The notes under the pieces were generated by a model. That model was not told the DNA's origin. It worked only from the letters and a program-made list of their open reading frames with translations, and did not search any database. Below, in pieces: positions 16,021 to 41,927 of a stretch of 64,000 bases of DNA (its first letter is position 1; each line of letters opens with the position of its first letter). The stretch is from Escherichia phage T4, in the sequence record NC_000866.4; one strand, 5' to 3'. The position numbers were made by a program, and so were the translations under genes.

Positions 16021-16028
16021 TATAAATA
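16021..16028 (+). promoter_or_regulatory. Late-promoter motif TATAAATA upstream of segE
   Basis: Exact TATAAATA 29 nt upstream of the segE ATG, in the inh-segE intergenic region. Confidence 0.5.
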
Positions 16029-18495: not shown

Positions 18496-18663
18496 CTATA
18501 GCAAAAGTTGTGTTTCATTTAATTGTTCTTCCGAACTTTCTGAAACTGGTAGTTCTTTAATGTAATTATAGCAAGGCCCAGGATGTACAGGACCTTTGTC
18601 TGTTTCAACAACCAATGCAGAATCGATTGGAGTTTTACAGACAACACAAATCTTATCTGACAT
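18496..18663 (-). CDS. Small Cys-containing protein (55 aa), uvsY.-2-like by position
   Basis: ATG-initiated ORF below the ORF-track cutoff, translated by hand (MSDKICVVCKTPIDSALVVETDKGPVHPGPC...); followed on the minus strand by a hairpin and U-tract. Confidence 0.5.
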   Translation of the reverse strand: MSDKICVVCKTPIDSALVVETDKGPVHPGPCYNYIKELPVSESSEEQLNETQLLL

Positions 18664-19802: not shown

Positions 19803-20428
19803 TATAGTAACTCAAAGAACTCTTTGAGGCCTCTTATTACGTGAGCATGGGTTTTTCCACACTCTGGACACTTAATTGGAACAGCCAAATAAACGGTAGG
19901 CTTTAAAAGCATATCTTTTATAGCTACAATATCTGACTCTGTGATGATAGAATATAAATCTTCTAGTTCCTTTTCATTTAAGTCTTCAACTGGAATGCTT
20001 TCCCCGTTAGCATGAATCGTTTCTATACATGATACTATCATGTGGGCTATATTTTTATCATCAAAAATTTTAGGGTATCGGAATTTAATTTTAATGTCAC
20101 CTAGTGTATACCAGAGGTCTTCTGGTGCATCTATTTGTGTATGTAATAGATTTATATGGGTTGGTATTTCAGTTCCACAGGTGCACTTCCAGGAGTTTTC
20201 GTGATTAACTTCACCGAGAGAATGTGCCCATAAATGAATCAACAATAGTTCTGATTCTTGGCGGTTTAAATCTTTTGCATTTGTGCAGTCTTTGATTAGC
20301 TTTTTAACAATTACTTCTACGGAACCATTATTTTTGGCAGTAATAAGTTCTAGATATTCTTTAAGCGTGAATGCGCGACAATTGATTATTTTAGAACCAA
20401 CTCTCACATCAAATTTGTATTCATACAT
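19802..20428 (-). CDS. 26: Baseplate hub protein
   Basis: 208-aa ORF; T4 gp26 length and position; TATAAATA on minus strand upstream. Confidence 0.9.
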
Positions 20429-20449
20429 ATTTAGCTCCTTTATTTATCA

Positions 20450-20461
20450 TATTTATAAATA
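20450..20461. promoter_or_regulatory. Overlapping divergent late promoters for gene 26 (minus) and gene 51 (plus)
   Basis: TATTTATAAATA reads TATAAATA on both strands (plus 20454-20461, minus 20450-20457), about 20 nt from each ATG. Confidence 0.6.
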
Positions 20462-20478
20462 GAATAAAAGGAGCATCT

Positions 20479-29533: not shown

Positions 29534-29559
29534 TTATAAAATTAAAGGCCCGAAGGCCT

Positions 29560-40339: not shown

Positions 40340-41927
<1,588 letters not shown>

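Follow-up and report, generated by a model that had tools for sequence, protein, structure and literature searches.

The divergent genes 26 and 51 of bacteriophage T4 raise the question of how late transcription can be started in both directions from a spacer of 50 bp, which is all that separates their ATG codons, and of what part is played by the palindrome TATTTATAAATA contained within it. The palindrome could be a promoter for one gene, for both, or for neither. The locus was studied within a stretch of 64,000 nucleotides of the T4 sequence record NC_000866.4, called the window below. Comparison of the gene coordinates of a published supplement with the open reading frames of the window indicates that a window coordinate equals the NC_000866.4 coordinate minus 96000. 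The window is 99.8% identical to T4 records, and the T4 and related records used for comparison were M77695, HM137666, MT984581, and OZ209023.

Read directly from the sequence, TATTTATAAATA is its own reverse complement, a perfect palindrome of 12 bp (Table 1). A motif scan of the 64-kb window finds the 8-bp box TATAAATA on both strands at this position, and the box of the + strand and that of the - strand overlap by 4 bp, the self-complementary TATA at 20454-20457. The box begins with these four bases, which read the same on both strands; two opposed boxes can therefore share them without any loss of consensus, and the 12-bp palindrome is the consequence of that sharing. The original prediction had described a box on both strands with an offset of 4 nt, each about 20 nt from one of two divergent ATGs, and had named the flanking genes as the baseplate genes 26 and 51. 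The annotation of the T4 record agrees with that naming, the scan recovers both boxes with the offset described, and the boxes end 17 nt from the ATG of gene 51 and 21 nt from that of gene 26. In the T4 and T2 records, genes 25 and uvsY lie beyond gene 26, and genes 27 and 28 lie beyond gene 51.

Table 1. Features of the gene 26/gene 51 region. Positions are window coordinates, except in the last line, where they refer to the named loci of relatives.
Feature	Position	Strand	Basis or remark
12-bp perfect palindrome TATTTATAAATA	20450..20461		two back-to-back late-promoter boxes, 4-bp overlap
P51 late-promoter box TATAAATA	20454..20461	+	genes 51-27-28 and beyond; 'protein 51' TATA_box of M77695
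P26 late-promoter box TATAAATA	20450..20457	-	genes 26-25; 'protein 26' TATA_box of M77695
P51 transcription start (A)	20467	+	predicted from the rule that the box spans -13 to -6; GAATAA after the box
P26 transcription start (A)	20444	-	predicted from the rule that the box spans -13 to -6; TGATAA after the box
Gene 51 Shine-Dalgarno sequence AAGGAG	20468..20473	+	read from the sequence
Gene 26 Shine-Dalgarno sequence AAGGAG	20435..20440	-	contains the M77695 ribosome_binding_site 791-794
Gene 51, baseplate hub assembly protein, 249 aa	20479..21228	+	open reading frame and T4/T2 record annotation
Gene 26, baseplate hub subunit, 208 aa	19802..20428	-	open reading frame and T4/T2 record annotation
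Variant box GATAAATA, G at -13	20441..20448	-	second gene 26 TATA box of M77695, in the leader
Variant box TATGAATA	20418..20425	-	gene 26 TATA box of M77695, within codons 2-4
Aeromonas phage 25, avDM9-HANS, Riv-10	L013 1141-1188; L017 1140-1182; L018 1137-1182		TATTTAAATA

The box is over-represented. It occurs 19 times in the window, against an expectation of 8.4 +/- 3.0, a count reached by none of 100 shuffles, and 12 of the 19 copies lie 14-34 nt upstream of an ATG on the same strand (ORFs of at least 60 aa). The exact 12-mer TATTTATAAATA, of which Markov models of order 0 to 4 predict about 0.04-0.07 copies per 64 kb, is observed once, and nowhere else in the 64-kb window do two exact TATAAATA boxes overlap. 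Thus, the excess of the box, its placement before start codons, and the rarity of the 12-mer all indicate that more than chance is at work.

Two other copies of the box deserve mention. A thirteenth copy, at 18694-18687 on the - strand, is found 23 nt upstream of a 55-aa open reading frame, 18496-18663 (uvsY.-2), and is likely to be the late promoter of a small conserved gene that lies within an early/middle transcription unit. Another exact TATAAATA, at 40876-40883 on the + strand, is placed inside the near-palindrome TCTTTATAAATA and is antisense within a 386-aa open reading frame (40340-41500, - strand). No + strand ORF of at least 30 aa starts downstream of it in the scanned interval 40800-41150, and this copy either matches by chance or is a promoter of late antisense transcription.

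In reviews, the T4 late promoter is an 8-bp TATA box that spans about -13 to -6 and stands roughly one helical turn before the start; an AT-rich segment lies downstream of the box, and there is no -35 element. Contacts of gp55 are made to the unwound non-template strand of the box, at -12, -9 and -8. At the 26/51 spacer, the consensus TATAAATA (with A at -13 allowed) is found exactly on both strands; each box is followed by a stretch in which five of six bases are A or T (GAATAA for the + box, TGATAA for the - box); and each stands before its start codon at a distance within the 14-34 nt range of the window. The genes on both sides, 25 and 26 on the - strand and 51, 27, and 28 on the + strand, are of the late class in RNA and in protein (supplements of PMC9697503). 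A scan of the spacer detected neither a σ70-like promoter nor a terminator, and two weak matches inside gene 26 are at chance level. The short leaders that would run from the predicted starts each carry AAGGAG, and all relatives compared have an SD-like GGAG or GAGG ahead of gene 51.

In all these respects (the box, the AT-rich segment, the lack of a -35 element, the 14-34 nt spacing, and the late genes), the element resembles the gp55/gp33/gp45-dependent late promoters common to T4-like phages. It differs from an ordinary promoter of this kind in that two promoters of opposite polarity have 4 bp in common, the opposed elements facing gene 26 on one side and gene 51 on the other, which is the arrangement of a bidirectional promoter. 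With high confidence, the element can be read as the overlapping T4 late promoters P26 and P51, one consensus box per strand.

This pair of overlapping late promoters has long been described, and the element is already known, not new. Scarlato et al. (Virology 171:475, 1989), under the title 'overlapping promoters direct divergent transcription of the base plate gene cluster', are said to have mapped both 5' ends of the divergent late transcripts and would thereby have performed the two-direction 5'-end mapping that the original prediction proposed. In the T4 record M77695, the TATA_box of 'protein 51' (768-774) and that of 'protein 26' (772-779) are the bases of window positions 20450-20461, and between the element discussed here and P26/P51 of the baseplate hub cluster as annotated there, no difference is seen. 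M77695 belongs to the work of Gruidl et al. (Virology 184:359, 1991). Both overlapping boxes are also annotated, by similarity, as T4-type late promoters in MZ726795, a T4-like genome. The whole-genome records HM137666, MT984581, and OZ209023 carry no promoter annotation at the locus, and the pair is not discussed in a 2010 review of late transcription. A T4 dRNA-seq preprint reports 150 phage start sites. For 5' ends in general, one review cautions that primer extension cannot separate initiation from processing.

How widely the element is kept was determined by taking the 51/26 spacer from relatives of falling similarity to T4. Eleven lineages carry the 12-mer unchanged: Tequatro-, Karam-, Mosig-, Jiaoda-, Marfa-, Gapriver-, Muldoon-, Lazarus-, Dhaka-, and Gelderlandvirus, and Providencia phage PSTCR6. 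Identity of gp26 among them falls to 41%. In an alignment of nine lineages, the 12 columns of the palindrome are 100% identical, and the ten columns on each side have pairwise identities of 43% and 37%. A search of viral contigs (IMG/VR), in which a 9-sequence gp26 alignment served as the query, yielded 41 further loci with gp26 identities of 41-100%; the exact 12-mer is present in 41 of 41. These loci represent 17 distinct contexts, in which identity of the flanks is 48% and 41%. Such conservation at the orthologous position indicates very strong purifying selection on all 12 positions. Genes 26 and 51 are not divergent neighbours in Aeh1, a cyanophage, a Pseudomonas phage, and Slopekvirus. 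In the Slopekvirus Klebsiella phage vB_KpnM_05F (locus L023), genes 51, 26, and 25 are co-directional and overlap, and the 3.3-kb locus contains no [T/A]ATAAATA on either strand. The hub cluster of Slopekvirus is organised differently and is presumably promoted differently as well.

The relatives in which the palindrome has changed are informative about what is being conserved. In Morganella phage Rgz1 (OK499989, positions 1219-1272 of locus L022), the spacer between 51 and 26 has the sequence TATAAATATTTATAAAGA. A T to G change at -7 alters the T4-type box that faces gene 26, and a new, perfect TATAAATA is located 10 bp upstream. The result is a different palindrome, the 14-bp TATAAATATTTATA, in which the boxes are face to face, again with one on each strand; the divergent transcripts of Rgz1 are predicted to overlap by about 14 nt at their 5' ends. 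In the Krischvirus phages GEC-3S and KFS-EC (loci L012 and L020, 1134-1203), where the spacer is 70 bp, an insertion of 1 nt yields TATTTATAAAATA. The box facing gene 51 is intact after this insertion, the box facing gene 26 is broken, and ACTAAATA follows directly. This last sequence is similar to CTAAATA, the late consensus reported for Aeh1.

A third arrangement is seen in Aeromonas phages of the Tulane- and Biquartavirus groups, which have the 10-bp palindrome TATTTAAATA (Table 1). Both of their strands read TTTAAATA, with T in place of A at -12, the base that is flipped into a pocket by T4 gp55. The sequences of Aeromonas phages 25, avDM9-HANS, and Riv-10 suggest a different late-box specificity. 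Judged from the whole set of relatives, selection acts to keep one late-promoter box per strand and is not tied to any given palindrome. The original prediction had held that a single 12-bp element could drive both transcripts. Two overlapping, opposed late boxes are indeed what the annotation of M77695 and MZ726795, the conservation, and the late expression of the flanking genes point to, but a description as two 8-bp promoters with 4 bp in common suits the element better, as Rgz1, with one box per strand in a different palindrome, illustrates.

Another way to account for the conservation would be that a dimeric protein binds the palindrome and that this binding, on top of the promoter role, is the main reason why the sequence is kept; T4 DsbA or some other late regulator could be such a protein, and it would set the balance or the timing of P26 and P51. 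A perfect and invariant palindrome of 12 bp is typical of dimer-binding sites and is what such a site would be expected to look like, and DsbA binds, with low affinity, to AT-rich sites that overlap two late promoters (2010 review). However, two consensus boxes already account for all 12 positions, and dsbA is a non-essential gene (2010 review). Nor is the exact palindrome kept everywhere, given TATAAATATTTATA in Rgz1, the 10-bp palindrome of the Aeromonas phages, and the asymmetry of Krischvirus. These variants favour two promoters over a dedicated dimer-binding site, and a role of the latter kind as the chief reason for conservation is quite improbable.

It could also be proposed that only one of the boxes works, with the second TATAAATA a by-product of an AT-rich, partly self-complementary sequence and the other operon fed from elsewhere. 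One review cautions that in vivo activity has been demonstrated for not all of the 50 listed T4 late promoters, which leaves some room for this proposal, and the extra gene 26 boxes of M77695, GATAAATA and TATGAATA, could in principle substitute for P26. If a single box were at work, though, the four bases unique to the other should drift. No drift is seen: neither box shows any change in the four bases that are its own, in lineages with flank identities of 37-48%. The two substitute boxes are not conserved outside close relatives of T4. Where the T4-type box facing gene 26 has been damaged, as in Rgz1 and Krischvirus, a consensus or near-consensus box is found nearby. As for a supply from elsewhere, the nearest other TATAAATA on the same strand is at 16021 (+) or at 29538 (-), with several opposite-strand genes in between. 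Finally, both operons are late, and M77695 assigns one box to each gene. Taken with these observations, a single working box is highly unlikely. A chance AT-rich palindrome with no function, which the 36% G+C of the window and the commonness of short AT-rich palindromes might bring to mind, is effectively refuted by an expectation of about 0.05 such 12-mers per 64 kb, by the location in a 50-bp spacer between divergent late genes, and by an unchanged sequence in 11 lineages and at 41 loci whose flanks have diverged.

Two further candidates were considered and rejected. One is a hairpin or cruciform role, for which a 12-bp, AT-only palindrome that has no loop or G-C pairs and differs between lineages is poorly suited. 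The other is GATAAATA, at 20448-20441, as an important promoter; beyond Tequatrovirus this box is not conserved, and the start predicted from it would lie within the SD sequence.

For the overlapping pair P26 and P51, the sequence of events in late infection can be outlined as follows. E. coli RNA polymerase core, together with gp55 (the late sigma factor) and gp33, and activated by the DNA-loaded sliding clamp gp45, would open either one box or the other. Opening of P51 would lead to a start at about 20467 and rightward transcription of 51-27-28; opening of P26 would lead to a start at about 20444 and leftward transcription of 26-25. A distance of 23 bp separates the two predicted starts, and the melted regions would abut. 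Because open complexes at the two promoters would cover nearly the same ~60 bp, complexes at P26 and P51 should exclude each other, and the two orientations would share the site in time. Competition between the orientations, which the original prediction had raised as a possibility, would be a reasonable expectation from this geometry.

What might decide the direction is suggested by the workings of the clamp. The strand that carries the nick or primer end sets the orientation of gp45 and hence the polarity of the promoter that is activated (2010 review). Since clamp orientation selects polarity, the direction taken at P26/P51 could depend on local replication intermediates. An origin of replication, oriF (oriuvsY), is annotated in the T4T record HM137666 at 115333, corresponding to window position ~19321, 1.13 kb from P26/P51. 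Its proximity is possibly relevant, in that late promoters are activated by clamps whose loading at replication intermediates has a defined polarity. Put more fully, the proposal is that the 4-bp overlap constitutes a replication-polarity toggle, in which P26 and P51 are strictly exclusive, the ratio of 26-25 to 51-27-28-29 transcription is set by the strand with the nick or primer end, and the turnover of boxes in Rgz1 and Krischvirus represents a retuning of that ratio. This reading of the site, in which replication bears on the choice of direction, is unlikely.

Bacteria are said to have comparable elements, and bidirectional promoters arising from the symmetry of the -10 element were reportedly described by Warman et al. 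(Nat Microbiol 2021). In common with those, P26/P51 consists of opposed, overlapping elements made possible by partial self-complementarity, with starts about two helical turns apart (predicted here as 23 bp). The phage element differs in its use of gp55 as the sigma factor, in its 8-bp box, and in its activation by the orientation of a DNA-tracking clamp. The choice of direction at P26/P51, unlike that at σ70 promoters, may thus be tied to replication.

As a discovery, the element carries low weight, given that annotation of these two overlapping promoters goes back more than 30 years. The present comparison adds how widely they are conserved, together with the altered arrangements found in Rgz1, Krischvirus, and the Aeromonas phages. 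The locus offers a tidy illustration of how a partly self-complementary box allows opposed promoters to share bases and of how selection keeps one box on each strand. It would also serve well as a natural substrate in testing whether sliding-clamp polarity chooses the direction of transcription at a shared site.
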